Numbered from the stretch's first letter, positions 31,784-61,153 are shown. The stretch is 64,000 nt of DNA from Alphaproteobacteria bacterium (GCA_965214705.1 OZ243972.1:1824001-1888000), one strand, 5' to 3'. Translations and numbers: made by a program. The notes: a model not told the origin generated them from the sequence alone.

Positions 31784-32379
31784 ATGCGCGGTATCGGCGG
31801 CAGCACGCTCAGGGGCGGCCAGACGGTCTTTCACGGGCTGCGGATGTGGGGCCAGCTCTTCCGGGCGGCGATGTTCCTCGCGGCCGTCACCACCGTGACG
31901 GTGCCGGCCTGGACGCTGTGGCACCGCACCACCGGGGCGGAGTGGTACGCCGCCGGCATGGTGACGCTGGCCGAGGTCAAGCTCGTCCTCGGCTACGACC
32001 CGGAGTCCGGCCAGGAAATCCGGTTCGCCGACGGCACGCGGCGGGTGATGAGCATCCGCGACATCGCCGCGTCCGTTCCGGCCAGGGCCGCGCGGGAGCG
32101 GATCAGGGACGAGATGTTCGCGAGCGCGGCGCTCGGGGCGATGGCGGGCGCCGGGCTGATCGGGCTCTTCCTTGCCGTCTTCTGGGTCCGGGGCGCGCAG
32201 CTGGGCCGCCAGAAGCGCATCCGGGGCGCGGAGATGGTGACGGCCGCCGAGCTGCGCCGGCGGGTGCAGCCGCCGCATCACCGCGCGCTCGCGAGGCTGC
32301 CGGGCGGCAAGCGGCTGCGGCCCTACTCGATCGCCGGCATCCCGTACCCGGAGAGGACGGAGACGCAGCACACCATCGT
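31784..32379 (+). pseudogene. traD: Coupling protein TraD, 5' part (interrupted)
   Basis: AAGGAG RBS; LRGGQTVFHGLRMWGQ, two TMs, RIRGAE, ends ETQHTIV immediately before the expected Walker A. Confidence 0.9.
32367..32379 (+). repeat. Left att core of the traD-integrated element
   Basis: 12/13 match to 59538-59550, exactly at the traD break. Confidence 0.85.
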
Positions 32380-32495
32380 GCGCACCTTCGGTGCTAACGT
32401 ACTGATATAGCGTCGCTTCTTTCCTCCTGATTCAGCCGCTGGAGGCGGATTCGATCCCCGATTTCGCCCCGGCTGCAACATGAAGAACGGGAGGA

Positions 32496-33626
32496 ATGCC
32501 AATGGCGACGCTCCGCCTCAACGACCGCCGCGTCGAGTCGCTCAAGCCCCGAAAGTCCACCTACGACGTTCGCGACCGCGACCTCAGGGGCTTCGGCGTA
32601 AGGGTGCTGCCCTCGGGCGCCAAGCGGTATTTCGTACATGCTCAGCACGAAGGCCGGCGGATCTGGAAGATCGTCGGCCGCGCCGGGTCCATCGGCGCGG
32701 GCGAGGCCCGCGAACGGGCCAGAACCTTGATCGCCGCGATCCGGAATGGAAACGACGACCAAGCCGCTGCACCGCCGGACACCCCGTTCGAGACGGTGGG
32801 CGACGAAGTCTTCCGGCGCTACGCCCGAAACTGGAAGCCGTCGACCCTCAGGGTCAACCGGAACTACTACCGAAACCAGATTCTCCCCTGGTTCCAGGGA
32901 CGCCCCATCGCCGACATCACCGCCCGCGACGTCAAGCAGTGGTTCACATCCCTTCACGAGACCCCTGTCGCCGCCGACCGCTCGGCTCCCGTTCTCTCGG
33001 TCATCATGCGCCAGGCCGAGGTCTACGGGTATCGGCCGGAAGGGACCAATCCGTGCGTGGGCATCAAACGGTACCGCCGCCAGGGGCGGGAGCGCTTCCT
33101 GACGGCGGCGGAGCTCCGCCGCCTGGGCGCGATGCTGGCCCGCCACGAGGCCGGCCGCCCGCAGGTCGTGGCGATCATTCGGCTGTTGCTGCTCACCGGG
33201 TGCCGCAAGGGCGAGATCATCACGCTGAAGTGGCGCTACTACCGCGAGGGCAACCTGTTCCTGGCGGACAGCAAAGTCGGGCCGCGCTCGGTCTGGCTCT
33301 CGTCCGCCGCGCGCGAGGTTCTCGACAGCGTACCCCGCAGCCCGGTCTGGGTCTTCCCCTCGCCGCAAACTGACGGATGCCTGACCGTGGCCACACTCGA
33401 CCGGGCCTGGCAGCGCATCAGAGCCGAAGCGGACCTGCGCGATGTCCGTCTTCACGATTGCCGGCACACGTACGCCAGCATGGCGCTGGCACAGGGCGAG
33501 ACGGTGCTGACCATCGGCCGGCTGCTCGGACACCGCGATCCAGCAACGACGCTGAAATACACACACATGTCCGACATCATGGTGCACGAAGCCGCCGATA
33601 CCGTCGGCGTCGTCCTCAAGGGCTAG
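32496..33626 (+). CDS. Tyrosine integrase 1 (N-terminal arm-binding domain)
   Basis: RDRDLRGFGVRVLPSGAKRY, TGCRKGE, HDCRH, LGH, catalytic Y. Confidence 0.93.
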   Translation: MPMATLRLNDRRVESLKPRKSTYDVRDRDLRGFGVRVLPSGAKRYFVHAQHEGRRIWKIVGRAGSIGAGEARERARTLIAAIRNGNDDQAAAPPDTPFETVGDEVFRRYARNWKPSTLRVNRNYYRNQILPWFQGRPIADITARDVKQWFTSLHETPVAADRSAPVLSVIMRQAEVYGYRPEGTNPCVGIKRYRRQGRERFLTAAELRRLGAMLARHEAGRPQVVAIIRLLLLTGCRKGEIITLKWRYYREGNLFLADSKVGPRSVWLSSAAREVLDSVPRSPVWVFPSPQTDGCLTVATLDRAWQRIRAEADLRDVRLHDCRHTYASMALAQGETVLTIGRLLGHRDPATTLKYTHMSDIMVHEAADTVGVVLKG

Positions 33627-33628
33627 GC

Positions 33629-34768
33629 ATGGCCGTGAAAAGGCGGCGTCTGACCGACGCCAACATCGCGAAGCTGGCGCCGAAGGCCCGCGAATACACG
33701 GTGTGGGACACGCGGCATGCCGGTCTCGGCGTGCGCATACGTCCGTCGGGGCACCGCAGCTTCGTCTACTGGCGGAAGGGCAAAGGCGGCGCGCGCAGGA
33801 TCACCCTCGGGTCTGCGGCGTTGATGAGCGTCGAGGAGGCGCGCGCCAAGTGCCTCGCCGTCGAGACCGCAGCCCTTGACGGCCAGCCGGAACGCGGAGA
33901 GGTCCCGACGTTCGCGGAGTTCGTCGCCGGGCCGGAGCGAGTCTTCTTCAACCGGGGCAAGCCGTCGACGCGGAAGGAGGCGAACCGGATGATCAACGCG
34001 CGTCTGCTTCCGGCCTTTGGATCGCTGCCGCTGGACCGGATCACCCGCGCCTGCGTGACCCGCTGGTTCGACGAGTTCAGCCGCACCGCGCCGGGCGGAG
34101 CCAATCATGCGTTGAACCTGCTCGGCAAGTTGCTGAACCACGCGATCGATTGCGGACATCTGCGGACGAACCCGGCCCGGAGCGTGAGGCGCAACCCCCG
34201 CCCCAAGCTCACCCGCTTCCTGTCTCGCGAGGAGGTCCGCCGTCTTCATCGTGCGCTCGACCGCCACGCCGTAGCACGGCCATTGTGCGCGCAACAGGCG
34301 GATATCATCCGCCTTCTCTTGCTGACCGGCTGCCGCCGGAGCGAGATCCTGACGCTGCGCTGGCAAGATGTGGAAGAGGACACGCTCAATCTCGGCGATG
34401 CCAAGAGCGGGCCCAGGCGGGTCTTTCTGAATGCGCCGGCCCGCGCGATCCTGAAGCGGCAGCCGCGATCCGCTTGCGCTTACGTCTTTCCTTCCCCGAA
34501 AAATCCCGGACGACCGCGTTCGCACAACCTGGCGCTCTGGCGTTCGGTGCGCAAGGAGGCCGGGATCGAGGATGTGCGCCTGCATGACCTCAGACACACG
34601 TACGCCAGCCACGCCGTGCTGCAAGGCGTCCCGTTGCCCGTCGTCTCACGCCTGCTCGGCCACAGGCGACCAAGCATGACGCTGCGCTATGCCCATGTCG
34701 GCGACCGCGAGACCGAAGCGGCATCGGAACGTATCGGTGCAGCTATCTCGCGAGCATTGGATGGCTGA
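33629..34768 (+). CDS. Tyrosine integrase 2 (paralogue of integrase 1)
   Basis: WDTRHAGLGVRIRPSG, TGCRRSE, HDLRH, LGH, RYAH; starts 2 nt after the integrase 1 stop. Confidence 0.93.
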   Translation: MAVKRRRLTDANIAKLAPKAREYTVWDTRHAGLGVRIRPSGHRSFVYWRKGKGGARRITLGSAALMSVEEARAKCLAVETAALDGQPERGEVPTFAEFVAGPERVFFNRGKPSTRKEANRMINARLLPAFGSLPLDRITRACVTRWFDEFSRTAPGGANHALNLLGKLLNHAIDCGHLRTNPARSVRRNPRPKLTRFLSREEVRRLHRALDRHAVARPLCAQQADIIRLLLLTGCRRSEILTLRWQDVEEDTLNLGDAKSGPRRVFLNAPARAILKRQPRSACAYVFPSPKNPGRPRSHNLALWRSVRKEAGIEDVRLHDLRHTYASHAVLQGVPLPVVSRLLGHRRPSMTLRYAHVGDRETEAASERIGAAISRALDG

Positions 34769-35108: not shown

Positions 35109-35190
35109 GTGTTAAATCACAGAAGTGGGAGTTCGCTTTCGACCCGCCCCCCGATATTATGACACAGGAACCGCTGGAGCCCCGGAACCA

Positions 35191-35824: not shown

Positions 35825-35844
35825 GTAAGTGGGGCAAATTCTGG

Positions 35845-40021: not shown

Positions 40022-40025
40022 GGTT

Positions 40026-42944: not shown

Positions 42945-43266
42945 CGCGATGCCTCCTCCAAGGCTCCTTGCCAAGGCCAAGAGTCAGCCGCGAAATCAGA
43001 TGCGTTGGAAGTATGGGGCCTCGATACCGCTTACAGTTGAGCTATGTGGAAAGTGCGCTGATGTCAGCGTCAGGCGGCATCCACCGGCAGCAGAGTTGCG
43101 CATGAGATCGACGCTCGCGCCGGCCTTTCGGCAGGCATGCGGGCGCACGCTGCGAGGACTGAGCGGGGTGTGAGCCGAGGGCTGTCAGCCCGGCCCAAGC
43201 GGAGACAGGTTCGGTCGTGCGTCGGCGCTTTGGCGCCGTTGCGCGGGGCCGAAGCGAGCGGGCGTC

Positions 43267-44508
43267 TCACGGTTTCCCCCTGTGGGTCGGCGGCACGGCC
43301 GGCGGACCGCGCGTCGAGCGGGGCTCATGGCGGCGGCGGATTTCGCGGACGAGGCGCATGACGCCGCCGCAGTGGGGGCAGGCCACGGGCGCGGTGTCGA
43401 TCACGGTCTCTTCGTCGGGCTCGGCCCGAGCGCCGCCCACGCTTTCCTCGGGGACGGCGCAGCCGAGGGCGCCGAGAGTCTGGCGTGCTCTCTCCAGCGT
43501 GCTGGCGCGGCAGCCGTTGGCGAGAATGCCGAAGTAGCGGATGCGGTGCATGCCGTCCGGCAGGACGTGCATCAGGAAGCGGCGGATGAACTCGTCTGCG
43601 CTCACGGTGGCGATGCCGTAGCGCGGCTTTCTCTGCCCCGGCGCCTTGGGCTTGCGGTGGCGGAAGGAGACCGTCTCGCCGTCGAAGGAGACGATGCGGC
43701 TGTCGGAGATGGCGATCCTGTGCGTGTAGTGCGAGAGGTACCGGAAGACCTGCTCAGGCCCGCGGAAGGGCCGCTTGGCGTAGACCACCCAGTCCCTGGC
43801 CCGGGCGGCGGCAAGCGTGGCGTGGAACTCGCCGGGATTGGCGAGGTGGGCGAGGGTGCCGTGGAACTCCAGGTCCCCCCGGCCGTGGGCGCGGGCGAGC
43901 TCCTTGAGGAAGAGGCGGCGGAACAGGCTGCCGAGGACCTTGACGGGGGCGAGGAAGGTGGTGCTCCCCGTCTTCCACTCGCCGCTGTCTACGTCGAAGC
44001 CCGCGTTGGGCACGACCACGTGCAGGTGCGGGTGGAAGCGGAGCTTCTGATCCCAGGTATGGAGGACCGCGGTGCCGCCGATGCGCATGCCGCCGTGGCG
44101 GGGATCGGCGGCGATGGTGCGCAGGGTCTCGGCGACGGCCCGGAAGAGGATGTCGAACACCACCCTGCGGTTGCAGAAGGCAATGGCGGCAACCTCCTTG
44201 GGCAGGGTGAAGACCACATGGAAGTAGGGCACCGGCAGGATGTCCCCGGCGCGCTCCTCGCTCCAGAGGTTGGCGGCGAGACCCTGGCAGGTGGGGCAGT
44301 GGCGGTTGCGGCAGGAGTTGAAGAGCGGATGCTCGCGCCCGCAGCCCTCGCAGGCGTACATGTGGCCGCCGAGCACGGCGGTGCGGCACGCCTCGATGGC
44401 GCCCATGACCTTGAGCCGGGCGGCGTCGATGCGCCCTTTGTGGCGCTCACGGAAAGCGGCGCCGGCGCGGCGGAGGATCTCCGCCACGCCCGCGCGTTCG
44501 GCCTCCAC
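43267..44508 (-). CDS. IS91-like (Y2 HUH) transposase with zinc-binding domain
   Basis: CRT..LGGH, SCRNRHCPTCQ, YFHVVFTLP, LHTW..HPHLH, YLSHYTHR, HVLP.G..RIRYFG. Confidence 0.93.
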   Translation of the reverse strand: MEAERAGVAEILRRAGAAFRERHKGRIDAARLKVMGAIEACRTAVLGGHMYACEGCGREHPLFNSCRNRHCPTCQGLAANLWSEERAGDILPVPYFHVVFTLPKEVAAIAFCNRRVVFDILFRAVAETLRTIAADPRHGGMRIGGTAVLHTWDQKLRFHPHLHVVVPNAGFDVDSGEWKTGSTTFLAPVKVLGSLFRRLFLKELARAHGRGDLEFHGTLAHLANPGEFHATLAAARARDWVVYAKRPFRGPEQVFRYLSHYTHRIAISDSRIVSFDGETVSFRHRKPKAPGQRKPRYGIATVSADEFIRRFLMHVLPDGMHRIRYFGILANGCRASTLERARQTLGALGCAVPEESVGGARAEPDEETVIDTAPVACPHCGGVMRLVREIRRRHEPRSTRGPPAVPPTHRGKP

Positions 44509-44514
44509 GCGCCG

Positions 44515-45393
44515 TCAGTTGCGCAACGCTGCGAAGCCTGAGATCGGGTGGTCGAGGCCCTCGAACATCTTGCCGGTGACGCGGGCGTAGTGACGGGTCG
44601 TGTTCGCGCTTCGATGGCCGAGCATGTCCCGGATCACCTCGATATCGCCGCCGCGCTCGAGGAGATGGGTCGCCGCCGAATGGCGCAGGCAATGGAAGGT
44701 GTAGCTGCGGTCGAGCTCGGCAATGTCGCGCGCCCTCCTGAAGGCGGCCTGCAAGGTCTCCGTTGCGATGGGCCTGTCGAGCGAGACGCCGTAGAAGAGC
44801 CAGCTCGTCGGACGCGGCCAGATGTTCCTGTAGTAGGCGCGCAAGTAGTGGATGACGCTGTCCGGCAACGGTGCCATTCTCTCGGTGCCGCCTTTGCCGG
44901 AGGGGATGTGTAGCAGCTTCTTCTCCGACAGGATGTCGCCGACCTTGATGGCCAAGGTCTCGGAGATGCGGAGCCCGCCGCCATAGCCGGTGACAATGGC
45001 AGCACGGTGGCGGAGGTCGGGCGTCGCAAGGATGAGGTGCTCGACCTCCTGCTCCGACATGTAGCGCGGCAGCTTGCCGGGCTTCTTGCGGGAGCGCAGG
45101 CCGGCGACGTGGTCAGGCCAGCCGAGTGTGTCGATGTAGAGGAAGTTCAGCGCGGCGAAGGAGACGTTGGTCGTGCCCGGACTGAGCCCCTTGTCGATCC
45201 GCCCCAGGTACCACTGGCGCACCTGCTCGGCGTCGAGCTCGTCCGGCGAGGCGTCGTAGTACCTGGCCAGGTTCTTGATCTCGCAGATGTAGGCCTTGGA
45301 CGTGCTCGCGGCCAGATTGGCGATGCGGAGCTGCTCCTCCATGCGCTGGCGAAGAGGGGTGACGGTGTTCGTGTCGCACGCGGTCCCGGTCAT
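44515..45393 (-). CDS. Tyrosine recombinase (Xer/IntI-like) paired with the IS91-like transposase
   Basis: PLRQRM, GLRISE, GKGGTER, HCLRHSAATHLLE, LGH, TTRHY. Confidence 0.93.
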   Translation of the reverse strand: MTGTACDTNTVTPLRQRMEEQLRIANLAASTSKAYICEIKNLARYYDASPDELDAEQVRQWYLGRIDKGLSPGTTNVSFAALNFLYIDTLGWPDHVAGLRSRKKPGKLPRYMSEQEVEHLILATPDLRHRAAIVTGYGGGLRISETLAIKVGDILSEKKLLHIPSGKGGTERMAPLPDSVIHYLRAYYRNIWPRPTSWLFYGVSLDRPIATETLQAAFRRARDIAELDRSYTFHCLRHSAATHLLERGGDIEVIRDMLGHRSANTTRHYARVTGKMFEGLDHPISGFAALRN

Positions 45394-45624
45394 TATCGAT
45401 CTCCCTGGATCGCGACGGCGCGCCGCCGGACCGATCCGGCGACGGTCCGTCGCAGGGGTCGATGCTAACCACTGGTGATCGGGAGGCTGCTGGGGATCCG
45501 CCACTCGACGGGCGGAGCGCCACTGACGCAACCGGGAAGCGAACGCACAGGGCAAACGGCACCCGCGACGCCTCGGAAATGAATGAACTCTACGCCGCTA
45601 ACTCCGCGTAGCGGCTTCGTTCAA

Positions 45625-47978: not shown

Positions 47979-48857
47979 ATGACCGGGACCGCGTGCGACA
48001 CGAACACCGTCACCCCTCTTCGCCAGCGCATGGAGGAGCAGCTCCGCATCGCCAATCTGGCCGCGAGCACGTCCAAGGCCTACATCTGCGAGATCAAGAA
48101 CCTGGCCAGGTACTACGACGCCTCGCCGGACGAGCTCGACGCCGAGCAGGTGCGCCAGTGGTACCTGGGGCGGATCGACAAGGGGCTCAGTCCGGGCACG
48201 ACCAACGTCTCCTTCGCCGCGCTGAACTTCCTCTACATCGACACACTCGGCTGGCCTGACCATGTCGCCGGCCTGCGCTCCCGCAAGAAGCCCGGCAAGC
48301 TGCCGCGCTACATGTCGGAGCAGGAGGTCGAGCACCTCATCCTTGCGACACCCGACCTCCGCCACCGTGCTGCCATTGTCACCGGCTATGGCGGCGGGCT
48401 CCGCATCTCCGAGACCTTGGCCATCAAGGTCGGCGACATCCTGTCGGAGAAGAAGCTGCTGCACATCCCCTCCGGCAAAGGCGGCACCGAGAGAATGGCA
48501 CCGTTGCCGGACATCGTCATCCACTACTTGCGCGTCTACTACAGGAACATCTGGCCGCGTCCGACGAACTGGCTCTTCTACGGCGTCTCGCTCGACAGGC
48601 CCATCGCAACGGAGACCTTGCAGGCCGCCTTCAGGAGGGCGCGCGACATTGCCGAGCTCGACCGCAGCTACACCTTCCATTGCCTGCGCCATTCGGCGGC
48701 GACCCATCTCCTCGAGCGCGGCGGCGATATCGAGGTGATCCGGGACATGCTCGGCCATCGAAGCGCGAACACGACCCGTCACTACGCCCGCGTCACCGGC
48801 AAGATGTTCGAGGGCCTCGACCACCCGATCTCAGGCTTCGCAGCGTTGCGCAACTGA
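47979..48857 (+). CDS. Tyrosine recombinase, copy 2
   Basis: Near-identical to 44515-45393. Confidence 0.93.
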   Translation: MTGTACDTNTVTPLRQRMEEQLRIANLAASTSKAYICEIKNLARYYDASPDELDAEQVRQWYLGRIDKGLSPGTTNVSFAALNFLYIDTLGWPDHVAGLRSRKKPGKLPRYMSEQEVEHLILATPDLRHRAAIVTGYGGGLRISETLAIKVGDILSEKKLLHIPSGKGGTERMAPLPDIVIHYLRVYYRNIWPRPTNWLFYGVSLDRPIATETLQAAFRRARDIAELDRSYTFHCLRHSAATHLLERGGDIEVIRDMLGHRSANTTRHYARVTGKMFEGLDHPISGFAALRN

Positions 48858-49160
48858 CGGCGCGTGGAGGCCGAACGCGCGGGCGTGGCGGAGATCTTCC
48901 GCCGCGCCGGCGCCGCTTTCCGTGAGCGCCACAAAGGGCGCATCGACGCCGCCCGGCTCAAGGTCATGGGCGCCATCGAGGCGTGCCGCACCGCCGTGCT
49001 CGGCGGCCACATGTACGCCTGCGAGGGCTGCGGGCGCGAGCATCCGCTCTTCAGATACCATGAGCACGGTGGCACCGAATCGATTCTGGCGGTTAGACAA
49101 GCTCGGAGAGAAGGCCAGCACCTTCTCTCCGAGCGGAATCGTCAACAACGGAGTGGACGG

Positions 49161-50357
49161 ATGTCGGATGGTCCAGACACGACCGCGCTGACAGGCGCAA
49201 GTAGTAGCACGATTTATGTCGCGGTGGAGATCAGCCTCAAATCGTGGATCGTTGGCGTGCATTGCCCGGATGCCTCGGGTGGCAGCATCAGCATCCACAC
49301 ACTGGCTGCTGCCGACACGGCGGGACTGTTGGATCTCGTCGGGTCGGTGCGGGAACGGGTGGCGAGGGAGCTCGGCGCCCGTCCTCGGGTGATGCTGACC
49401 TACGAGGCGGGCTACGAGGGGTTCTGGCTTGCCCGCGATATCGAGCGCCGTGACGCGGAGATCGATATCTTCATGAACGATCCGGCGAGCCTGCGGGTGA
49501 ACCGGCGCGCCAAGAAGAAAAAGACCGACCGTATCGACGCGAGGAGGATGGTTCGGGCTCTGAAGGCATGGGACCAAGGCGATTCGGAGGCCATGTCCTG
49601 GGTGCGCGTGCCCGATGTGGACCAGGAGGATGCCAAGCGCCTGCTGCGCGAGAGGGACACGCTGATCAGCGAGCGTACCCGCGTCAACAACCGGATCAAA
49701 GGGCTCTTGCAGTTGCACGGCATCTTCGATCTGGCGCCGCGCAAGCCGGACTTCCTCGAACGCCTCGCGACCGCGCGGACGGGCTATGGGGCGCCGTTGC
49801 CGCCGCGTGCGCGGGCAGAGATTGAGAGGGCGGTGGGGATGCTTCGCCTGGTTGAGGAGCATATCGAGATGATCGAGGCCGAGAAGAGGGCCCTGCTGAA
49901 GGCTGGCCGGAAAGCCCAGGACGCGACCAATCGTGACGGGACGGCGATGATCGCGGCGCTTACGCGCATCCATGGCATCGGCCTCAATGACGCCACACTG
50001 CTGGCTGGCGAGGTGTTCTATCGGGACTTCCGCAATCGCCGGGAGTTGGGCAGCTGGGCCGGGTTGACGTCGGTGCCGTGGGCGAGCGGAGATGTCGACC
50101 ACGATCTTGGCATCAGCAAGGCCGGCCCCTCGCATGTCAGGAAGCACATGATCCAGATGGCTTGGCGCTGGCTGAAGCTGCAACCGGAAAGCGCGATCAC
50201 GAAGTGGTTCCACGCCTACGTCGCCAGGGATGCCGGTGGCGGGAGGGACCGGCGAGCGAGGAAGCGGGCGATCGTGGGGGTCGCGCGCAAGCTGCTGATC
50301 GCGCTGTGGCGCTATGCCACCCAAGGACTGGTGCCTGAGGGCGCCATCGTCTCCTGA
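49161..50357 (+). CDS. IS110-family recombinase/transposase
   Basis: VAVEIS, YEAG..GFWL, KTDRIDA, GLTSVPWASG, ISKAG, AIVGVARKLL. Confidence 0.93.
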   Translation: MSDGPDTTALTGASSSTIYVAVEISLKSWIVGVHCPDASGGSISIHTLAAADTAGLLDLVGSVRERVARELGARPRVMLTYEAGYEGFWLARDIERRDAEIDIFMNDPASLRVNRRAKKKKTDRIDARRMVRALKAWDQGDSEAMSWVRVPDVDQEDAKRLLRERDTLISERTRVNNRIKGLLQLHGIFDLAPRKPDFLERLATARTGYGAPLPPRARAEIERAVGMLRLVEEHIEMIEAEKRALLKAGRKAQDATNRDGTAMIAALTRIHGIGLNDATLLAGEVFYRDFRNRRELGSWAGLTSVPWASGDVDHDLGISKAGPSHVRKHMIQMAWRWLKLQPESAITKWFHAYVARDAGGGRDRRARKRAIVGVARKLLIALWRYATQGLVPEGAIVS

Positions 50358-50702
50358 GGGCACCGGCCGAACGAACGGGAAAATACAGGAGGTTCCGACG
50401 TGGTCGGACGCGGCCGCGGAGGATGCCGGGCAAGGCGTGTGACCGGGCAAGAGTTGGGTCGCCGCTTGGCACCGTTCTACAGATGGGTCCCGCCTCCCGG
50501 AACGTCACCACCGCTTGGATGCGGTATTGGGGTCACGGAGCCGGCAAGCGCCGGAGTTCCGAACCGGATAAGAGCTGAGCAGCGTGGCGGATCGCTGCGT
50601 GGAAACGACGTTCTGCCTGGACATCGGCCGCGGATTCGAGTGGAGAGATTGCGAATGCCATTGACGTAGATGAAGCCGGGCCTTGCGGAGAGAGCTCATA
50701 AG
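50358..50702 (+). ncRNA. Candidate bridge/seek RNA region of the IS110 element
   Basis: 3' non-coding region in the IS1111 position; contains ATAAGAG (donor junction match) and GAGTTG/GGAGTT (complement of target CAACTCC). RNA boundaries unknown. Confidence 0.55.
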
Positions 50703-50866
50703 AGCCGGCAAGCGCCGGAGTTCCGAACCGGATAAGAGCTGAGCAGCGTGGCGGATCGCTGCGTGGAAACGACGTTCTGCCTGGACATCGGCCGCGGATT
50801 CGAGTGGAGAGATTGCGAATGCCATTGACGTAGATGAAGCCGGGCCTTGCGGAGAGAGCTCATAAG
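50539..50866 (+). repeat. Tandem duplication of the 164-bp IS110 right end
   Basis: 50539-50702 repeated at 50703-50866, each ending GCTCATAAG. Confidence 0.93.
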
Positions 50867-52177
50867 AACTCCTGCCGCAACCGCCACTGCCCCACCTGCC
50901 AGGGTCTCGCCGCCAACCTCTGGAGCGAGGAGCGCGCCGGGGACATCCTGCCGGTGCCCTACTTCCATGTGGTCTTCACCCTGCCCAAGGAGGTTGCCGC
51001 CATTGCCTTCTGCAACCGCAGGGTGGTGTTCGACATCCTCTTCCGGGCCGTCGCCGAGACCCTGCGCACCATCGCCGCCGATCCCCGCCACGGCGGCATG
51101 CGCATCGGCGGCACCGCGGTCCTCCATACCTGGGATCAGAAGCTCCGCTTCCACCCGCACCTGCACGTGGTCGTGCCCAACGCGGGCTTCGACGTAGACA
51201 GTGGCGAGTGGAAGACGGGGAGCACCACCTTCCTCGCCCCCGTCAAGGTCCTCGGCAGCCTGTTCCGCCGCCTCTTCCTCGAGGAGCTCGCCCGCGCCCA
51301 CGGCCGGGGGGACCTGGAGTTCCACGGCACCCTCGCCCACCTCGCCAATCCCGGCGAGTTCCACGCCACGCTTGCCGCCGCCCGGGCCAGGGACTGGGTG
51401 GTCTACGCCAAGCGGCCCTTCCGCGGGCCTGAGCAGGTCTTCCGGTACCTCTCGCACTACACGCACAGGATCGCCATCTCCGACAGCCGCATCGTCTCCT
51501 TCGACGGCGAGACGGTCTCCTTCCGCCACCGAAAGCCCAAGGCGCCGGGGCAGAGAAAGCCGCGCTACGGCATCGCCACCGTGAGCGCCGACGAGTTCAT
51601 CCGCCGCTTCCTGAGGCACGTCCTGCCGGACGGCATGCACCGCATTCGCTACTTCGGCATCCTCGCCAACGGCTGCCGCGCCAGCACGCTGGAGAGAGCA
51701 CGCCAGGCTCTCGGCGCCCTCGGCTGCGCCGCCCCCGAGGGAAGCGTGGACGGCGCTCGGGCCGAGCCCGACGAAGAGCCCGAGATCGGCACCGCGCCCG
51801 TGGCCTGCCCCCACTGCGGCGGCGTCATGCGCCTCGTCCGCGAAATCCGCCGCCGCCATGAGCCCCGCTCGACGCGCGGCCCGCCGGCGCTGCCGCCGAC
51901 CCACAGGGGGAAACCGTGAGACGCCCGCTCGCTTCGGCCCCGCGCAACGGCGCCAAAGCGCCGACGCACGACCGAACCTGTCTCCGCTTGAGCCGGGCTG
52001 ACAGCCCTCGGCTCACACCCCGCTCAGTCCTCGCAGCGTGCGCCCGCATGCCTGCCGAAAGACCGGCGCGAGCGTCGATTTTATGCGCAACTCTGCTGCC
52101 GGTGGATGCCGCCTGACGCTGACATCAGCGCACTTTCCACATAGCTCAACTTCGCCTCTCGTGGCCCGCGGCTTCGT

Positions 52178-55100
52178 TCAAAAGGGTTGGGCAGGCTCTC
52201 GAGAGAGAGCCTGCCCAACCCTTAACCTTCCCCGGTCCCGGCTCATTCGCAGGGCGGCCTGCTTTTCCTGTTCCTGCGCGACCCTGTTGCGGATCTCCTC
52301 TTCCCGCTCCCGAACTACATCCGGGCCTGCGCCGGCGGCGCCCAGATGGGCGGCGAGTTCGTGTTGCGGCATTTCCTTCCTGATTGCCGCCGCCTCGTCG
52401 AGAACCTCCTTCTCCTTCTGCCCGCAGTCCTGCCGGGCCTGTCGACGCTCCTCGAACGAGTTGGTCGTGACGTCCATCTGCGTCAGAGCGTTCCGCGCGC
52501 GCTCGAACTCCGCGGCCCGTTCGAGGAACGCATGGACCCGATCCCGGTTGAGCGCCCAGCGTTCGTCCCTGGCGAGAAGGCCGTCGACCGTGTCGCGCAG
52601 CCTCTCCGGCAGATGCGGCCTGGCATCGAGCGAGCGGGCGCGCTCCATCAGCGCGGCATAGGCGCGGCTGTCGAAGCCGATCCCGCCCGTCTTCTCCGCC
52701 CACTGCTGCACGACCGAAGACAGCACGTCCGTCTCCCGTGCCTCGACCTCGATCAGCGCGCTGTCGAGGCGGTCCGTTCCCTCGGCCAGCGCCTTGCGCT
52801 CGGCCGGTAAGGCGGCGAGATGGGGCGCATGAGGGGCGTCGTTCGCCAGCATCGCGCGGGCCTCGGCGAGCAGGGGCTCCGCCTGCCGCCGCCAGCCGGT
52901 CAGGGCGACGAGCGTCGCGGGACGCTCGGGGCAGTCCGCCGTCAGCGCGTCAAGCCGTGCGGGCCATTCCCGGATCTGCCGGCAGACCGGTTCGCACCGG
53001 GCGTGATAGTCGAGCCATGAGGCGACAACCTCCTGCGTGCGCGCCGGCAGCGCCGCCTGCGCGGAGAGCGCCTCGGCCCGTGCCATCAGCTCTCCGTAGC
53101 GCGGCACGTGGAACGCCTCGGTCCCGGTCTCGCGCTCCTGCCGGTTTACCTCCTTCGTCAGCCACCCGAATGCCCGGTAGCTGTCTTTCCTTAGCGCATC
53201 GCTGATTTCCTCCGCCGCCTCCCGGACAGCTTCGCGCCCGCCCGGCTCGGCGTCCAGGTAGGGCGCATGGACATCTTCCGGGCGCAGCATGTCCCCGGCC
53301 ATGGCCTCCAGCTTGACCCCTTCCTCGCGCCAGGACTGCCGCGCGGGATGGTCCGGATCGAGCCCGCCGGGCTCGTCCTGCGGCAGGTCCGCCGCCTGCC
53401 ACGCCGCGATACGGCCGGGCAGGGCGCGCACCTCGTCCGCCAGCGCCGTCTGCGCCGTATCGACCTCCCGCCATTCCGCCACCCCGCGCTGCGCCTGCGC
53501 ATCGAGTCCCTCGGCGACCGCGAGCCTTTCGCCAAGCGCCGCTACCTGCCGATAGCCCGGCGCGCAAATCTCCGGGACGACGCTCTCAGCCGCCCGTTCG
53601 CGAAGCGCGTGCCACGCCCGTTCGAACCGCCCGGCATCGTCGAGGAGGCGCGTGCGTTCGAGCATATCGACGGCGTCTTCCAGACCGGCGCGTCCGCCCG
53701 GCATGGCATGGAGGTGTCGGGCCACATCGCGATGCACCACCTCATGGTGTGCCGCCACGCGGTGGGCCGCTTCGCCGTCGGCCTCCACCAGACTCCGGCC
53801 TGCCTGTAGAAGCGCGGCCCCTTCATCGCGCCAGGCAGCATGTTCGGGGAGTTGCTCCACCGGCACTCCTTGCGAGGAGGCCGCCCAGCTGAGCTCCGGC
53901 CAGCGCCGCCAATGGTCCCGGATGCCCTCGACGAGACCGCGTACCTCGCGGTCGTGCGCGAGATGCTCCTCGTGTTTCGCCAGCATGGTGTCGGTGAGGC
54001 GGCGCATGTCCTCCGGCAGGTCCTCGATCTGCGCGAGCGCAGCAGCCTGGGCCATCGTGTCCCTGTAGCCCGGGAGGAGGAACGGAACGGTGTGCGTTGC
54101 CTCGCCCTCCTGCAGAAGCGCCCGCCAGTCCGCAGCCAGCGCCGCGAACTCTTCGGGGTCCACCACGGGGGGCTCGGACAGGTCGATCCCCAGCGCCTCC
54201 AGCGCCCCGTCCTCGCTCCGGTCGTATGCCATGCTCTCGATGAGCGCGTCGCGGTCGTCGGTCAGCAGCAGGAACTCTTCAGAGACCCGGCTGATCTCGA
54301 CATGGAACAGCTCGCGGTCGACCCAGCCGCCCGCGTCCAGCACCGCGATCGCCGCACGCGCCGTCCGGCCCTGCGCAGAATGCACGGTGGAACAGTAGGC
54401 ATGATCGAGATGGCGCAACTGCGGGTCGGCAAGCGCGAGACCGAACTCCCGGCCGCCCTCGCGGAAGAGCACCCGCCTGTAGCCGATCTCCACGATCTCC
54501 GCCTCGCCGCCATTGACCAGGTCCGGCCCCCGGGGATGCCTGCCGCGGCCGGGCGGGGCCTTGCGGTTGCGCGTCCAGCGGATCATATCGCCAGCGCGCA
54601 GCTCGATCCGCTCGGTGTCGCAGACGCTCAGATAGCGCGCCGCATTGCCCGAGGGCCGGAACCGGCGCTCGCCGTCCGCATGGGCCAGCACGACCCTGCC
54701 GTCGTCGTGGCCCATGACGGTGCAGACGTCGTTCGCGCGGCAGCCGAAGACGTCGCGGTGGAACACGACGGTGTCGCCGGGCTCGTAGCTGCGGATATCG
54801 GAAGCCAGCGCACGGGTGAGCCGCCGGTCGACCAGGCGGTCGACGGCCAAGGTGCGGCCCCGCAACACGCCTTCCTCCGCGAGCCCTTCGCGCACCGCCT
54901 CGTTTGCCTGCCGGCGGATTGCGTGCGTGGGGGCGAGGATCAGGGTGTCCGCCCGCTGCTCCGGCGCCAGCGTGAGCCAGCGCCGCGCCGCCTCGATGCC
55001 GAGCTCCTCGCGGGGCGCCTCGCGCACCCGGTTGCCCAGCGCCGCGATCGCCGCGCCCGGCTCCCCCTCCCTGACGCGGCCTACCGTCGCGCGCAGCTCC

Positions 55101-57043
55101 GGGTCGCGCTGGCGCAGCACCTCGTCCATGGTCGCCGTCGCCATGCCCGCCTTCTGCAGCAGACGGAAGGGCTGGCCCGCATCCACCGCCCTCAACTGCG
55201 CGGTGTCGCCCACCAGCGCGACCCGCGCCACGTCCAGATCGCGCGCGATGCGCAGCAGCGCCTCCATGCGCACGGTGTCGATCATCGAGGCCTCGTCCAC
55301 CGCCAGCACCACGCCCCCGTACTCCTCCCGGCCCCGCGCCAGCCGCGCCGGGTCGGAGAGGTCGTTGAAGCGGGTCAGGAAGTGCTGCAGCGTCCGTGAG
55401 GGGATGTCCGCCTCTCTGGCGAGAACCCGTGCGGCGGCGGCCGAGGGCGCAAGGCCCTGTATCGTCCTGTCCCCGAGAAGCGCCTTCACCTCCCTCAGCA
55501 TAGTGGTCTTGCCGCTGCCGGCATGGCCCTGCACGCCGACCGTGAAGTCGTCCGACAGCAGCACCGTGCGGACCGCCTCCCCCTGGCCCTGCGTGAGACG
55601 CGACGCCCCGAGCCGCGCCTCCACGGCATCCGCGCCGGCCAGCGCCATTCCCCGTGAGCGCCCCGCCCGCATCGACGCCAGCACCTGGCGTTCGGCCTTC
55701 ACCGCGCGGTCGGTGACGAAGGCCCGGTCCATGCCCCGGCGTTCCGCCTCGATCAGCTCGCCGCCGGACACGAGCCGCGCGATCGCCGCGTCGACCTGGG
55801 CCAGAGTGTAGCGCCCCGGCGCGTGACCCAGCGCCACCGCCCTGATCTCGGCCTCCGGGACCGCGGTGCGCCTCTCCGCAACATGCGCCACCGCCCGCGC
55901 CACCGCCTCCAGGACTCCGCGCTCCGGTTCCTGCGACAGCTCCGCCGGTGCCGGTGAGCGAGGGGGCGTGGGATTCACCCCCGCCGACGCGGCAACGCCG
56001 TCGCGGGGCTGCCTCGGCAGCGCCGGCAGCGCCGGCGCGCGCTTCAGGCTGCGGATCTCGTTGGGAGGCAGGTCGGGCGCAGGCACGCGCGGCACTCCAA
56101 CCCGCTCGCCGGTCACCGGGTCGAGGGGCCGGGACGGCGTGAGGGCCGTCTTCTCCCGGACCAGACCCAGTGCCCGCGCCCGTTCGCGCCATTCCGGCAC
56201 CAGGTCCGCAAGGCCCTTGTCCTCCTTGCGCCGGCGCGTGTGAAGTGCCGCCATCTGCGTGTGCTTCGCCGTGTAGGACAGGTCCTGGCGCTCCAGGTAC
56301 GCAAGTATCTCGCGGCGCCTGCCCGAGAACGCGTCCAGGAAGGAGCGGTCGTAGCCCGCAAGCTCGAACCCCGGCACCCGTCCCACCAGGCTCGGCGAGA
56401 CGGCCATGCCCAGCGCCTGAAGACGCAGCGCGAGCTCGTTCCGGTAGTACGCCCCGATCAGCTTCTCGCTGCGCCGGATCTTCGTCGGCTCCACGCTCCG
56501 CCATTCCCCGGACGCATTGCGCGTCATGTTGGCCAGCACGCAGTGAGTGTGCAGCTGCGGGTCCTGATCGCGGCTCGCGAGATGCCGGAACCCCGCCACC
56601 ACCATGCCCTCCGCCTTCACCCGGGGACGGCGCCGGGTCGCGGGGTCCCAGCCCCGGGTCTGAAGGAGGTCCGCTTCCACGAAGCCCAGCGTCGCCCGCA
56701 CCGCTTCGTCATGAGCCCGGATCACGCGCCGGTCGCCCATCACCAGCGCCTCCAGCGATACCGACTTGGGCGCCGACAGGGTGATGTCCCAGCCGGGCCG
56801 GTGATCGTGCTCCCCTTCGCGCATCCGGCCGAGACGCAGGTCCGTCCCCGGCACGTATCCCGACAGCACCGATTCGAAGCGCGAGGGACGCACATGGGCC
56901 TTGAGCCCCAGCGCCTTCGCCGCGTCCCCGTACCAGAAGCTGGCCTGGCGGTGCTCGGGATCGTTCTTTGCGTAGTAGCCGTCGCGCTCGTAGTAGGTCA
57001 CCGCCATGGCGGACGAACGAAGCTCCACCACCGTGGCTACCAT
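52178..57043 (-). CDS. MOBF relaxase-helicase of the integrated element (last 3 codons displaced to 47737-47747)
   Basis: YYERDGYY, DITLSAPKSVS, HLASRDQDPQLHTH, GHAGSGKTT, DEASM, HAYCSTVHSAQGRT; long helical C-terminus. Confidence 0.93.
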   Translation of the reverse strand: MVATVVELRSSAMAVTYYERDGYYAKNDPEHRQASFWYGDAAKALGLKAHVRPSRFESVLSGYVPGTDLRLGRMREGEHDHRPGWDITLSAPKSVSLEALVMGDRRVIRAHDEAVRATLGFVEADLLQTRGWDPATRRRPRVKAEGMVVAGFRHLASRDQDPQLHTHCVLANMTRNASGEWRSVEPTKIRRSEKLIGAYYRNELALRLQALGMAVSPSLVGRVPGFELAGYDRSFLDAFSGRRREILAYLERQDLSYTAKHTQMAALHTRRRKEDKGLADLVPEWRERARALGLVREKTALTPSRPLDPVTGERVGVPRVPAPDLPPNEIRSLKRAPALPALPRQPRDGVAASAGVNPTPPRSPAPAELSQEPERGVLEAVARAVAHVAERRTAVPEAEIRAVALGHAPGRYTLAQVDAAIARLVSGGELIEAERRGMDRAFVTDRAVKAERQVLASMRAGRSRGMALAGADAVEARLGASRLTQGQGEAVRTVLLSDDFTVGVQGHAGSGKTTMLREVKALLGDRTIQGLAPSAAAARVLAREADIPSRTLQHFLTRFNDLSDPARLARGREEYGGVVLAVDEASMIDTVRMEALLRIARDLDVARVALVGDTAQLRAVDAGQPFRLLQKAGMATATMDEVLRQRDPELRATVGRVREGEPGAAIAALGNRVREAPREELGIEAARRWLTLAPEQRADTLILAPTHAIRRQANEAVREGLAEEGVLRGRTLAVDRLVDRRLTRALASDIRSYEPGDTVVFHRDVFGCRANDVCTVMGHDDGRVVLAHADGERRFRPSGNAARYLSVCDTERIELRAGDMIRWTRNRKAPPGRGRHPRGPDLVNGGEAEIVEIGYRRVLFREGGREFGLALADPQLRHLDHAYCSTVHSAQGRTARAAIAVLDAGGWVDRELFHVEISRVSEEFLLLTDDRDALIESMAYDRSEDGALEALGIDLSEPPVVDPEEFAALAADWRALLQEGEATHTVPFLLPGYRDTMAQAAALAQIEDLPEDMRRLTDTMLAKHEEHLAHDREVRGLVEGIRDHWRRWPELSWAASSQGVPVEQLPEHAAWRDEGAALLQAGRSLVEADGEAAHRVAAHHEVVHRDVARHLHAMPGGRAGLEDAVDMLERTRLLDDAGRFERAWHALRERAAESVVPEICAPGYRQVAALGERLAVAEGLDAQAQRGVAEWREVDTAQTALADEVRALPGRIAAWQAADLPQDEPGGLDPDHPARQSWREEGVKLEAMAGDMLRPEDVHAPYLDAEPGGREAVREAAEEISDALRKDSYRAFGWLTKEVNRQERETGTEAFHVPRYGELMARAEALSAQAALPARTQEVVASWLDYHARCEPVCRQIREWPARLDALTADCPERPATLVALTGWRRQAEPLLAEARAMLANDAPHAPHLAALPAERKALAEGTDRLDSALIEVEARETDVLSSVVQQWAEKTGGIGFDSRAYAALMERARSLDARPHLPERLRDTVDGLLARDERWALNRDRVHAFLERAAEFERARNALTQMDVTTNSFEERRQARQDCGQKEKEVLDEAAAIRKEMPQHELAAHLGAAGAGPDVVREREEEIRNRVAQEQEKQAALRMSRDRGRLRVGQALSREPAQPF
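52182..52223. repeat. Perfect 19-bp-stem terminal hairpin (copy 2)
   Basis: AAGGGTTGGGCAGGCTCTC-gaga-GAGAGCCTGCCCAACCCTT. Confidence 0.95.
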
Positions 57044-57751: not shown

Positions 57752-57794
57752 GGCAATTGTCCCTTCTTGCGGTCCACCTCGTGCACCTCATTCA

Positions 57795-58040: not shown

Positions 58041-58516
58041 GGCTTCGCTGCCGGCGGCTCGGTCGGGACCGTGACCGAGGTCACGACCGAGGCTGCAGCG
58101 ATACGTGCCCGCTCCTCGCCCAGCACCGAGGCGAGCGCCAGCCGCAGCTCTTCCGAGCGGCCCGACCCGGCCATCGCAGACGCCCACGCGGCGAACATCA
58201 CCGCGATCCTCTCCTGCATGTCGCGCACAAGGGGACCCGCATCCTCCCCCTCCAGCATCAGCGCGTGAACCTCCCGCAGCGCCTCCAGCTGCTCCCGCTG
58301 CTCGTCCTTTGCCAGCGCCAGCGCGGGCCACTCGTGCCGGGGACCCGCGTCCTCTTCCGATGCGTCCCGCTCCACCAGCCCCAGCAGGTAGCGCGCGATC
58401 GACAGGCCGCGCCGGTCGGCCTTGTTGCGAACGGTCTCCCACTCCGCGTCCGTCGCCGAGATCGAGATGTGCCTGCTCGGCCTGCGCGCCTTCCGCCGAC
58501 GCCGCACCCGTCTCAC
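57980..58516 (-). CDS. Ribbon-helix-helix (MobC/TrwA-like) protein 3
   Basis: RHISISATDAEWETVRNKADRRGLSIARYLL; GTGA overlap with upstream gene. Confidence 0.7.
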   Translation of the reverse strand: MRRVRRRRKARRPSRHISISATDAEWETVRNKADRRGLSIARYLLGLVERDASEEDAGPRHEWPALALAKDEQREQLEALREVHALMLEGEDAGPLVRDMQERIAVMFAAWASAMAGSGRSEELRLALASVLGEERARIAAASVVTSVTVPTEPPAAKPEVAPEASAGETDSRQDRLL

Positions 58517-58824
58517 GGCGCACGCTCCCTCGCAAGGACGGAGATCGCGCTCAAAAGGCTCAGCCCGCTGCCCCCCGGAAGCTCGCGCCGGAGAGCCCGC
58601 ACGAATGCCTGCAACTCCCGAACCCCGTCCCGCTGTTCCACCTGTTCCTCTTCCGTGAGCACCAGAGGATGGCGGTCCGGATCGTCGGCGAGCGCGAGAT
58701 CCAGAATATAGCGCGACACGGTCTTCTCCGCCGCCGCCGCGCGCTCCCGGATCATCGCCTGCTCGGCCGGCTTGCAGTGCAGGCTCCGCTGACGCCTGCC
58801 GGGCCGCGCCGCCGACTCCGTCAC
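58513..58824 (-). CDS. Ribbon-helix-helix (MobC-like) protein 2
   Basis: RQRSLHCKPAEQAMIRERAAAAEKTVSRYILDLAL; GTGA overlap. Confidence 0.72.
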   Translation of the reverse strand: MTESAARPGRRQRSLHCKPAEQAMIRERAAAAEKTVSRYILDLALADDPDRHPLVLTEEEQVEQRDGVRELQAFVRALRRELPGGSGLSLLSAISVLARERAP

Positions 58825-59192
58825 GATCCTTCCTCCTCAGCCGGCACCGCCGCCTTCCAGCGGTTCGCAGCGCCTGGATCGGTGAGCCGGTCCAGCATGC
58901 CCTCCCGATCGATCCATTCGTCCACCGCGTCGCAGGCGTCCTCCCAGGCCGCACCGGCGCCCGCCCCGCGCAGCCGCCTCTCCTCCAGCATGGACATCAC
59001 CAGCATCTCGCGGACCGCCCGGCGCAGAACCTCCGGCGGCAGAGGGTCCCGGTCCAGCGCGCGATGGATCACGAAGCGCGACAGGTCCATGCCGCTCGCC
59101 GCAGCCGCCCGGCCGATGCGTTCCCACTCCGCATCGGTGGCCATGACCGCGCGCTGGCGCCGTCCGCCGGCATCCTCCCTCATGGTGGCCAA
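58821..59192 (-). CDS. Ribbon-helix-helix (MobC-like) protein 1
   Basis: RQRAVMATDAEWERIGRAAAASGMDLSRFVIHRAL. Confidence 0.75.
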   Translation of the reverse strand: MATMREDAGGRRQRAVMATDAEWERIGRAAAASGMDLSRFVIHRALDRDPLPPEVLRRAVREMLVMSMLEERRLRGAGAGAAWEDACDAVDEWIDREGMLDRLTDPGAANRWKAAVPAEEEGS

Positions 59193-59440
59193 CCGCCCGA
59201 CAATACATGCCGCGACCGGGACACGCGTCCCCTAGAGCATGCAGAATATATGACGAAAATCCTATGGCATTCCTCGCGACCGCTAGTATATGCCGCCATT
59301 GTGTCCTCGCAGAGCCGCCCACACTAGTCACAAGACCATACCCGAGCTCTACGCCGATATCCACAACCCACTTCCCCGCGTGCAACTCCTGAGAGACACA
59401 AGATCTGCCATTGTGTTCTCCAACTCCGCCCAATCCGCCC

Positions 59441-59469
59441 TTGACAAGCATCCTAACCCACTGTAACGT
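59441..59469 (+). promoter_or_regulatory. Candidate sigma70 promoter facing out of the element
   Basis: TTGACA-17 nt-TAACGT, ~70 bp inside the right att site. Confidence 0.55.
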
Positions 59470-59537
59470 AGTCCACATACGGGAGAAAAGAGCAACCCTG
59501 CGTCAGCCCCGATGCACTGTTAATTCGCCTAGTATAG

Positions 59538-59550
59538 AGCACACCAGCGT
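59538..59550 (+). repeat. Right att core of the traD-integrated element
   Basis: AGCACACCAGCGT, followed directly by traD codons for SGTTGSGKT. Confidence 0.85.
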
Positions 59551-61153
59551 CTCGGGCACCACCGGGTCCGGCAAGACGGTGCTGATCTCGGACCTGGTGA
59601 CGCAGATCCGGGCGCGCGGTGAGCGCTGCGTTCTCTACGACAAGATGGGCTCCTACACCCGGTCCTTCTTCGACAAGGACCGGGACGTGCTGCTCAACCC
59701 GCTCGACGCGCGCGCGCCGCGCTGGTCGCCGTTCCTGGAGGCGAGGAACCCGCGCGACTTCGACATGATGGCGGCCGCGCTGATCCCGCAGCAGAAGGAC
59801 ACGGTGGACCCGTTCTGGGTGACGGCGGCGCGCCAGCTCTTCGCCAACGGGGCGGGCGTGCTGCGGGGCAAGGGCGAGACGCGCAACAAGGTCCTGGTCG
59901 ACCACCTGCTCAAGACCGACCTGACGGCCCTGGCCCAGGCCATGGAAGGCACGGTTGCCCAGTCGATCGTCGATCCCGAGAACCCCAAGACCGCGCTCTC
60001 GGTGCGCGCCATGCTGACCGCCAACCTGGGCGCATTGGAGTTCCTGCCCGACGAGGGCAAGCCGTTCTCGATCCGGGAGTGGATATCGGACGAGGAGCGC
60101 GAGGGGTTCCTGTTCCTCACGTCGCGGGGCGACCAGCACGCCAGCCTGCGCGGCCTCATATCCACCTGGCTGGAGATTGCCGTCAACGCGATGCTCTCGC
60201 TCGCCCAGGACGACGGCCGGCGCATCTGGGTGATCCTCGACGAGCTGCCGACGCTGCACCAGGTGCCGTCGCTGCAGCCGGGGCTTGCCGAATCCCGCCA
60301 GTTCGGCGGCTGTTTCGTGCTGGGTGTCCAGGTGGCCTCGGCGCTCCGCGACCTCTACGGCCGCAACGGCGCGGAGACGATCTCGGGGCTCTGCGGAACC
60401 CGTGTCGTGCTGGCGGCGCCGGACCGCGACACCGCGCAATGGTCGGCCGACAGCCTGGGGCGCAGCGAGGTCGAGGAGGTGTCCGAAGGGGTCAGCTACG
60501 GCGCCAACACCATCCGCGACGGGGTGAGCCTGACGCCGCGCCGCGAGCTGCGCGCGCTCGCGCTCCCTTCCGAGATCATGCGGTTGGAAAACCTCGCGGG
60601 CTATCTCAAGTTCCCCGGCCCCTTCCCGGTCGCCTCGATCCGCCTGAAATACGTCGCCCGGCCGAAGGCTGCCGAGCGGTTCGTGCCGCGCGAGGGGGAT
60701 GGCCCGGCGCCCGCCGGGCAGCCGGGCGGTGTCGTGATTCCTCCCGAAACCGGGGATGCAGCGTCCCGCGGGGAGGACGGCATGACGATCCCGGAGCGGG
60801 TGGAAGCAAATCCGTCAGCCGGCGTTGCGCTCCCGGCGCCGGAGGGCGGGCGGACATCCGCCGCGCGCCAGGGTGAGCTCGACCTTCCGCCGCTGCCGGG
60901 AGAGGCCGGGAGCGCGGAAGCGGAGCCCGAGGGACCCGGGAATCGCGGTTCCGGAAAGAAAGACGGCCGGGGCCAACCGCAGGCCGGCGTGGTGACGGCC
61001 GCGGCATCGGAGGCGGACGGGGAAGCTGCGACGGCGGAAGACACGCCGCCGGACGACGGGCTGGAAGCGCAAACCCAGCCGGCCGGGGCGCCCGCGACGG
61101 AGGAGGAAGGCGCGGCGGGGCCGGACGCGGGCCGCGCCTCCGACTGGGCCTGA
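59551..61153 (+). pseudogene. traD: Coupling protein TraD, 3' part
   Basis: SGTTGSGKT Walker A, YDKMG, NPLDAR, DPFW, ILDELPTL Walker B, RQFGGCFVLG. Confidence 0.93.

Follow-up and report, generated by a model that had tools for sequence, protein, structure and literature searches.

The 64,000-nucleotide stretch of alphaproteobacterial DNA analysed here, referred to as the window (G000:C1:1824001-1888000), carries an F-type conjugation cluster whose coupling-protein gene, traD, is divided in two by an integrated mobile element. It belongs to a genome of 7.92 Mb in three contigs with 67% G+C (G000). The genes of the type IV secretion system (T4SS) adjoin traD upstream and traI follows downstream. 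The split is defined by four features:

31784..32379, plus strand: traD 5′ fragment, residues 1-198 and two bases of codon 199, ending ...QHTIV
32370..32379, plus strand: attL core, ACACC followed by the 5-mer ATCGT, as in native traD
59541..59550, plus strand: attR core, ACACC followed by the 5-mer AGCGT, one base off native traD
59551..61153, plus strand: traD 3′ fragment, starting SGTTGSGKT and running from the Walker A motif GTTGSGKT onward

Joined, the 596+1603 nt of the two fragments yield 732 codons and a stop, and the DNA between them measures 27,171 bp (59550-32380+1), values that agree with an earlier reading of this stretch made without database searches (the sequence-only reading). 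Past 32379 the traD 5′ frame continues into the insert and meets a stop at 32410. The insertion falls in the His-Thr codons just ahead of the traD Walker A motif, and a 13-bp repeat, AGCACACCA(T/G)CGT, is found at 32367-32379 and 59538-59550. Against the NCBIfam profile for F-type TraD (TIGR02759, TraD_Ftype), the 5′ fragment covers positions 2-179 and the 3′ fragment positions 181-565 of 566, each scoring by itself under the whole-protein cut-off, and five traD paralogs in G000 are unbroken at the site (...HTIVSGTTGSG). Because both the profile and the paralogs are continuous across this position, the split is clean, in frame, and not a product of chance.

A misplacement of the insert into traD through mis-joined repeats is scarcely credible. 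The integrase pair is part of a repeat of about 30 copies and the genome has a contamination score of 8.72%, both of which would fit such an error; this score counts duplicated marker genes, and here it probably reflects duplicated genes. However, contigs from two independent runs of one organism bridge the attL junction (32379/32380) with 0 differences, and a contig from a sponge metagenome bridges it with 10 differences in 527 nt (~98% identity), hence this junction is not an assembly artefact. Both junctions also bear the ACACC-N5 signature of the element family described below, and two related genomes (G032 and G038) show similar traD junctions. No loose end at 32379/32380 was seen among those listed for the contigs of four runs, in which rare variants are dropped, and strict patterns for the traD attR and traD attL junctions returned 0 and 0 metagenome contigs, a result of little weight.

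Outside of the nested insertions listed in the last section, the element consists of the following parts:

32380..32495, plus strand: left end, with conserved terminus GCGCACCTTCGGTGCTAAC and a subterminal inverted-repeat arm at about 32402-32427 (from a 31-copy alignment and an end-to-end alignment)
32496..33626, plus strand: intA, tyrosine integrase with Arm-DNA-bind_3, SAM-like and catalytic domains
33629..34768, plus strand: intB, second tyrosine integrase, 37% identical to IntA
34851-35108, plus strand: cargo remnant, SBP_bac_3 fragment of a solute-binding protein gene
35125-35880, plus strand: cargo remnant, ZorA2-like N-terminal fragment in a 251-aa open reading frame (ORF)
52178..57043, minus strand: MobF (TrwC/TraI-type) relaxase-helicase, 1621 aa
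57086..57751, minus strand: orf221, without family match, kept beside the relaxase in other copies
58513..59192, minus strand: two NikA-like ribbon-helix-helix (RHH) genes, RHH1 at 58513-58824 and RHH2 at 58821-59192, with Pfam scores just under the cut-off
59193..59540, plus strand: right end, with conserved block ...GCAACCCTGCGTCA... and a subterminal inverted-repeat arm at about 59482-59506

IntA and IntB both match Phage_integrase, the tyrosine type, and both have the P4-type Arm-DNA-bind_3 domain. The relaxase reaches 258.9 bits against NF041492 (cut-off 100) and has the layout of the MobF class, with an N-terminal TrwC-type domain (residues 13-291) followed by an SF1B helicase (AAA_30, residues 483-671). 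It is 41% identical to the host TraI over 967 aa and has in common with it the motif YYERDGYYAK.DPEHR.AS that the sequence-only reading had picked out. That reading also had two integrases, a MobF relaxase and RHH genes without any T4SS or coupling gene, which held up when 20 ORFs of the insert were scanned: none matched a T4SS or coupling-protein family. Removal of ~15.6 kb of nested IS66, IS91-type, IS110-type, and group II intron DNA (roughly 36.4-52.15 kb) leaves a core of ~11.6 kb, close to the ~11.8 kb first estimated, in the order left end, intA, intB, cargo, MobF relaxase, orf221, RHH1, RHH2, right end. By gene content, namely its own recombinases, defined ends, and a relaxase with neither T4SS nor coupling protein, the insert is thus classed as a putative composite integrative mobilisable element (IME). 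As for its cargo, the ORF at 35125-35880 matches the first 221 positions of the type II Zorya protein ZorA2 (NF041792, E 2.4e-31) and looks like the truncated remnant of an anti-phage system.

A tandem-integrase family with a short target

The integrase pair recurs throughout the genome. A search of G000 with IntA gave 149 matches, including 31 loci at 59% identity or more, and by our own tally of these matches IntB lies directly downstream in 25 of the 31. When the 330 bp upstream of all 31 IntA loci were aligned, every one displayed the terminus GCGCACCT.CGGTGCTAA; outside of it come five variable bases, then ACACC (ACACG in one copy), and the flanks beyond are unrelated. Similarly, fifteen right ends contain a common block ending in GCACACC+N5 and then pass into unrelated flanks. 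A regular-expression census of the genome counted 35 left ends and 14 right ends, from which seven matched end pairs were obtained, with 5-mers identical in five pairs and one base different in two, including the traD copy. The two ends of the element are related by an imperfect subterminal inverted repeat of 25-40 bp, and three other copies in G000 encode a ~90% identical relaxase along with orf221 and both RHH genes. As judged from these alignments, this is a family of multi-copy tandem-tyrosine-integrase elements, about 30 in this one genome, that would integrate at ACACC followed by five variable bases. The conserved landing site in traD envisaged by the sequence-only reading is thereby reduced to a 5-bp motif that is not specific to traD. 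Within the terms searched, the literature yielded no account of tandem P4-type integrases in an element that targets ACACC, and a plasmid search returned pairs of “site-specific integrase” genes, all at 41% identity or less. Members of the family can also be nested, as seen for G000:C1:365437-381024 within G000:C1:360455-382350, the inner copy having the 5-mer GTCTG at both ends and the outer one ACCCG at both ends.

Family members occupy unrelated genes, an outcome that the sequence-only reading had named as fatal to its proposal. Matched copies in G000 interrupt a polyketide synthase gene, between its PP-binding and ketosynthase domains, and transposase genes of the DDE_3, IS66, and ISAs1 types, and no known T4SS gene of the other G000 clusters holds another family end. 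In relatives, the targets include metabolic genes such as those for PhyH, a GMC oxidoreductase, and an MR_MLE enolase-type protein, as well as a group II intron reverse transcriptase gene. Beyond the genus, a scan for the left-end pattern with one genome per species identified at least 84 stretches, in many alphaproteobacterial metagenome-assembled genomes (MAGs) and also in gammaproteobacterial, Acidobacteria, Binatia, and Dehalococcoidia MAGs. Among the 80 of these loci that were examined, IntA was present in 62 and IntB in 58, and none had TraD homology in its flank. For four loci from Paracoccaceae and Rhodobacterales MAGs (L033, L073, L080, and L098), the left end lies within a tRNA-Gln(ttg) gene, in its 5′ end, and some branches of the family are therefore classically site-specific; most copies in the genus of the host are not at tRNA genes.

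The split traD is also one of several in its genome. G000 holds four complete F-type clusters and three further traD-traI pairs, and the three other complete clusters have intact traD and traI. The five traD paralogs that are contiguous at the site include three within complete T4SS clusters, so that the intact traD elsewhere in the genome that the sequence-only reading had regarded as a refutation does exist. One of these paralogs has the same CACACCATCGT motif, yet is empty, and the four nearest traD relatives (92-95% identity, in four genomes) are uninterrupted at the site.

Taken together, the insertion in traD was probably an opportunistic and survivable hit in redundant mobile DNA, made by a loosely targeted element with hot spots, rather than an evolved gate on conjugation. 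While integrated, the element inactivates this one of the four F-type clusters. Its reversal would require that IntA and IntB recombine the two ACACC-N5 cores, and the mismatch between the 5-mers (ATCGT at attL, AGCGT at attR) may be the trace of a strand exchange across a non-identical overlap, later resolved by replication. Precise excision at these repeats is predicted to rebuild traD in frame, residue 198 becoming Ile or Ser. A postulated origin of transfer in the element would be nicked by the relaxase together with the RHH proteins, and the element would borrow a coupling protein and T4SS in trans. Even in this ordinary form, the locus documents a prolific tandem-integrase family with 35 left ends in one genome, defined ends, a simple ACACC-N5 target and nesting, which is useful for the annotation of genomic islands and for studying how paired integrases act.

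Repeated insertion into traD

Further split traD genes were sought in 44 genomes of the taxonomic family of the host, using an intact paralog as the query. In G038, traD is cut at the same codon as in G000, and a homologous right end abuts its 3′ fragment, followed by RHH2 (88% identical), RHH1 (87%), orf221 (60%), and the first 261 residues of the relaxase (85%). This copy is a remnant: the relaxase ORF stops at 282 aa and is succeeded by ordinary metabolic genes, and neither a 5′ traD fragment nor, nearby, an integrase pair was found. When RHH2 was traced through 21 genomes of the genus, 31 rows at 82% identity or more were obtained, and the flanks of 20 right ends outside of G000 were fetched. 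Only one of the 20 matches a conjugation protein, again traD, in G032, at a different codon ~74 residues further on; no other T4SS gene was hit among these 20 flanks. The G032 element is whole, spanning 45 kb with ACACCATGGC at both ends, IntA at 79% and the relaxase at 89% identity, and its intB is split by ~1.3 kb. The sequence-only reading had asked whether split traD genes recur at the same codon: G038 is cut at that codon and G032 at another, and the overall counts are 3 of 27 right ends in the genus and none of the 80 loci elsewhere. Here the 27 right ends comprise six full-length G000 copies, the twenty fetched flanks, and G038. The element thus does not reside in one conserved coupling-protein-gene site, with 3 of 27 right ends in traD spread over two traD sites.

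Other candidates from these searches were set aside. Two 5′ traD fragments reaching residue 198 or 204 (G030:C114 and G028:C603) read through the site and end with their contig, and the traD in G040:C2 is cut ~15 codons upstream of the site by different DNA. An order-level search of 49 genomes yielded nothing beyond the family-level one, and a class sample of 401 genomes, with two candidates scored per genome, contained no further split traD: the matches in G202, G408, and G438 start near residues 167-178, either upstream of the junction or as weak N-terminal matches.

Several observations weigh against a purely opportunistic insertion. First, intA, intB, the relaxase, both ends, and the host traI are all full length in this copy, which makes a reversal mechanically plausible, and the ~98% identical metagenome contig would mean that the integrated state has persisted across some divergence. 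Second, of the 27 right ends that represent the relaxase/RHH-bearing subfamily in the genus, 3 lie in traD (G000 and, from two other species, G038 and G032). ACACC sites within traD genes make up 44 of 12,550 in G000 (8 stretches, ~6 per gene), and under uniform choice among ACACC sites the probability of at least 3 such hits in 28 is 1.3e-4. Third, in a tree of TraD C-terminal parts, forcing the same-codon pair of G000 and G038 into one clade costs 35.1 log-likelihood units (approximately unbiased test, p-AU 0.020), and such a tree favours either independent traD hits or repeated precise excision.

For at least 2 hits in 28, uniform choice gives 4e-3, and under the assumption that just one tenth of the genome can take insertions the two probabilities become 0.07 (at least 3) and 0.26 (at least 2); survival of insertions in dispensable DNA could thus explain the excess in traD. 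Given ~6 ACACC sites per traD gene, two traD insertions that share a codon are nothing unusual. The tree itself was a quick one of 43 rows, in which G000 traD joins G027_C85 (Shimodaira-Hasegawa-like approximate likelihood ratio test, SH-aLRT, 90) and G038 traD joins the intact paralogs of its own genome (SH-aLRT 91). Four of 47 rows had been dropped, one in the wrong frame (G030_C269) and three very short (G030_C42, G041_C6_403k, and G030_C227), and two of the short ones rank among the nearest relatives. Gene conversion among paralogs could produce the same picture.

A landing bias devoid of any regulatory role would also account for the repeated hits. The relaxase-bearing subfamily would then favour conjugative elements, including traD, hitch-hiking in cis and frequently ending in dead ends, either through co-entry with conjugative elements, through activity when those are excised or transcribed, or through a carried 5-mer (A.CGT) that could match the traD site. 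This agrees with traD holding 3 of the 27 right ends, at two different codons, and with attP-like and attB sequences that have GCACACCA.CGT in common (11 of 12 bases), another G000 copy having ACACCAGCGT at both ends. In addition, in two species right ends bearing RHH2 adjoin a GMC oxidoreductase gene, and they do so at one and the same position (L160, G029:C191; L157, G034:C1:366k). Either this gene is a second target that is hit repeatedly, or the two species share an old insertion; traD is therefore not alone in showing recurrence at one site, and hot spots would be a habit of the family. On the other hand, the sample is small, the G000 and G038 copies could have a common origin if gene conversion has obscured the tree, allowing for survival in dispensable DNA brings the p-value to 0.07, and the 20 flanks tested hold no hit in any other T4SS gene. 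On balance, we consider such a bias rather unlikely. If it were true, mobilisable elements would have been steered into the very gene they need by two unrelated recombinase systems, one in Gram-positive and one in Gram-negative hosts, which would point to a general rule in the conflict of conjugative elements and their hitch-hikers and would offer a testable on/off gate for conjugation.

The more ambitious proposal, which the sequence-only reading had advanced, is that residence in traD is an evolved trait of the element: the host cluster would transfer only after excision, which would couple the transfer of host and parasite. It would make sense of the clean in-frame split with intact recombination machinery, of an element that has neither coupling protein nor T4SS, of three traD hits by the relaxase-bearing subfamily (probability 1.3e-4 under uniform choice), and of two same-codon cases that are not sisters (p-AU 0.020); a like logic has been put forward for Firmicutes IMEs in traG/VirD4 in the section of PMC5704250 devoted to such elements. 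However, most copies are in unrelated genes, including the three other relaxase-bearing ones in G000, the target is only ACACC-N5, and both the nearest traD relatives and the same-motif paralog are empty. Three other complete clusters could supply TraD, and with insertions tolerated in just one tenth of the genome the enrichment would weaken to p = 0.07. Each of the three copies in traD also shows damage somewhere: G000 has an apparent traU frame break and 15.6 kb of nested DNA, G038 is a remnant, and intB is split in G032. We therefore regard an excision-gated switch of this kind as improbable. A dedicated excision switch is possible, but the distribution of the family does not support one; with traD hit repeatedly, a weaker form of the idea survives.

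Comparison with known mobile elements

The closest parallels come from Firmicutes, where IMEs occupy two sites in traG (VirD4) of Tn5252-superfamily integrative and conjugative elements (ICEs), namely IME_Sco1050_traG_site1, IME_Sco1050_traG_site2, and Tn6104, as laid out in the relevant part of PMC5704250. Section 3.5 of the same 2017 review of IMEs offers the hypothesis that induced excision restores the conjugation module, after which both elements move. Because this idea is in print for Firmicutes, the combination that the sequence-only reading did not recognise as described is not conceptually new, although its parts differ here. As in the traG systems, an element without a T4SS of its own sits inside a coupling-protein gene and more than one site is used. 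Unlike these, which, in the portion of the review concerned, have serine recombinases with high site specificity, other relaxase types, and Gram-positive ICEs, the present element combines two tandem tyrosine integrases, a MobF relaxase, an F-type traD, and an alphaproteobacterial host, with most copies outside traD. One could envision that the relaxase-bearing branch has converged on the strategy of the Firmicutes serine-recombinase IMEs, landing preferentially in traD (three hits at two codons in three species), rebuilding it on excision, and gating host transfer. We judge this convergence quite unlikely; were it to hold, parasitism of coupling-protein genes would be a general and independently evolved tactic of mobilisable elements.

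With regard to target choice, Tn916 and CTnDOT are low-specificity tyrosine-recombinase elements with variable coupling sequences and a single integrase, and both are self-conjugative. The family described here resembles them in its short conserved target beside variable crossover bases, its tolerance of heterology, and its many sites, and departs from them in its 5-mers, which mostly agree between the two ends (5 of 7 pairs), the two integrases, and the lack of a T4SS. The P4-type integrases of tRNA islands have the same domain architecture, and the four Rhodobacterales members that abut tRNA-Gln(ttg) recall such islands, whereas the integrases of this family are paired in tandem and most copies in the genus are not at tRNA genes. 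Excision that restores a split gene is known from the skin element in sigK and the comK prophage switch, which have a fixed site and an excision tied to a programme. Here too an element splits a gene and, as far as the sequence goes, precise excision would restore the frame, but occupancy of the site appears sporadic.

Strand-biased circularising elements and GInts are examples of multi-recombinase elements. The recombinase-in-trio (RIT) elements and Tn554 also belong to this category, according to the passages of PMC8138268 that deal with them. Like these elements, the family has tandem tyrosine recombinase genes at one end, occurs in multiple copies, and spreads in a transposon-like manner. 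Unlike RIT elements and Tn554, it has two recombinases followed by cargo fragments, Arm-DNA-bind_3 in both, no TnpC-like third gene, and a relaxase module.

Nested elements and genomic surroundings

The DNA nested within the insert comprises the following units:

37452-39119, plus strand: IS66-family remnant
40186-42980, minus strand: complete IS66-type unit, with tnpC at 40186-41928, tnpB at 41995-42345, and tnpA at 42342-42980
43035..45624, minus strand: IS91-type unit, copy 1, with a Y2 transposase at 43267-44508 and a tyrosine recombinase at 44515-45555
45598..46998, minus strand: group II intron-type reverse transcriptase ORF
47748..52151, plus strand: IS91-type unit, copy 2, inverted, 98-99% identical to copy 1
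49054-50866: IS110-type insertion of 1.8 kb that splits IS91-type copy 2

An 89-nt inverted repeat, 98% identical, links 40017-40105, beside the IS66 unit, with 52144-52232, overlapping the relaxase gene at its 3′ end; it suggests either a rearrangement or DNA that the IS91-type units brought with them.

At the ends of the family elements, most right ends display an outward-facing promoter-like sequence, TTGACA-N17-TA..AT (TATTAT in L017 of G038), which in a circle would face intA across the joint. The traD copy has this sequence at 59440-59475 with a degenerate second hexamer, and a promoter scan scored no sigma-70-like site at either end of that copy.

The host cluster itself contains, besides traD:

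14069..31212, plus strand: F-type T4SS genes, by Pfam traL, E, K, B, V, C, trbI, an S26 peptidase, traW, ssb, traU, traN, traF, traH, and traG
23137..24153, plus strand: traU, whose frame apparently breaks near 23835, with the C part at 23834-24139 in the next frame
61155..64000, plus strand: traI, MobF relaxase, a 1025-aa ORF that runs on to window-equivalent 64232

The N and C parts of traU are contiguous in one frame in three paralogs and not in this cluster, and the break may be a real frameshift or an assembly indel error in a G run. The host traI, at 1025 aa, is similar in length to its paralogs (978-1040 aa).

More broadly, the mobile-DNA load of G000 is very heavy, with four complete F-type clusters, seven traD loci, several dozen places that match TrwC-type relaxases, and ~150 matches to one integrase. 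A 2034-aa ORF with fn3, Calx-beta, and cadherin repeats (6222-12326) lies immediately before the transfer genes and adjoins a hybrid histidine kinase/response regulator (3964-6267). Tyrosine integrases of a second family, with ~40% identity to IntA, are arranged as pairs and as runs of three or four, for instance at G000:C3:223375-227893 and as a pair at G000:C1:1821848-1824186 that ends just inside the start of the window (1-186).

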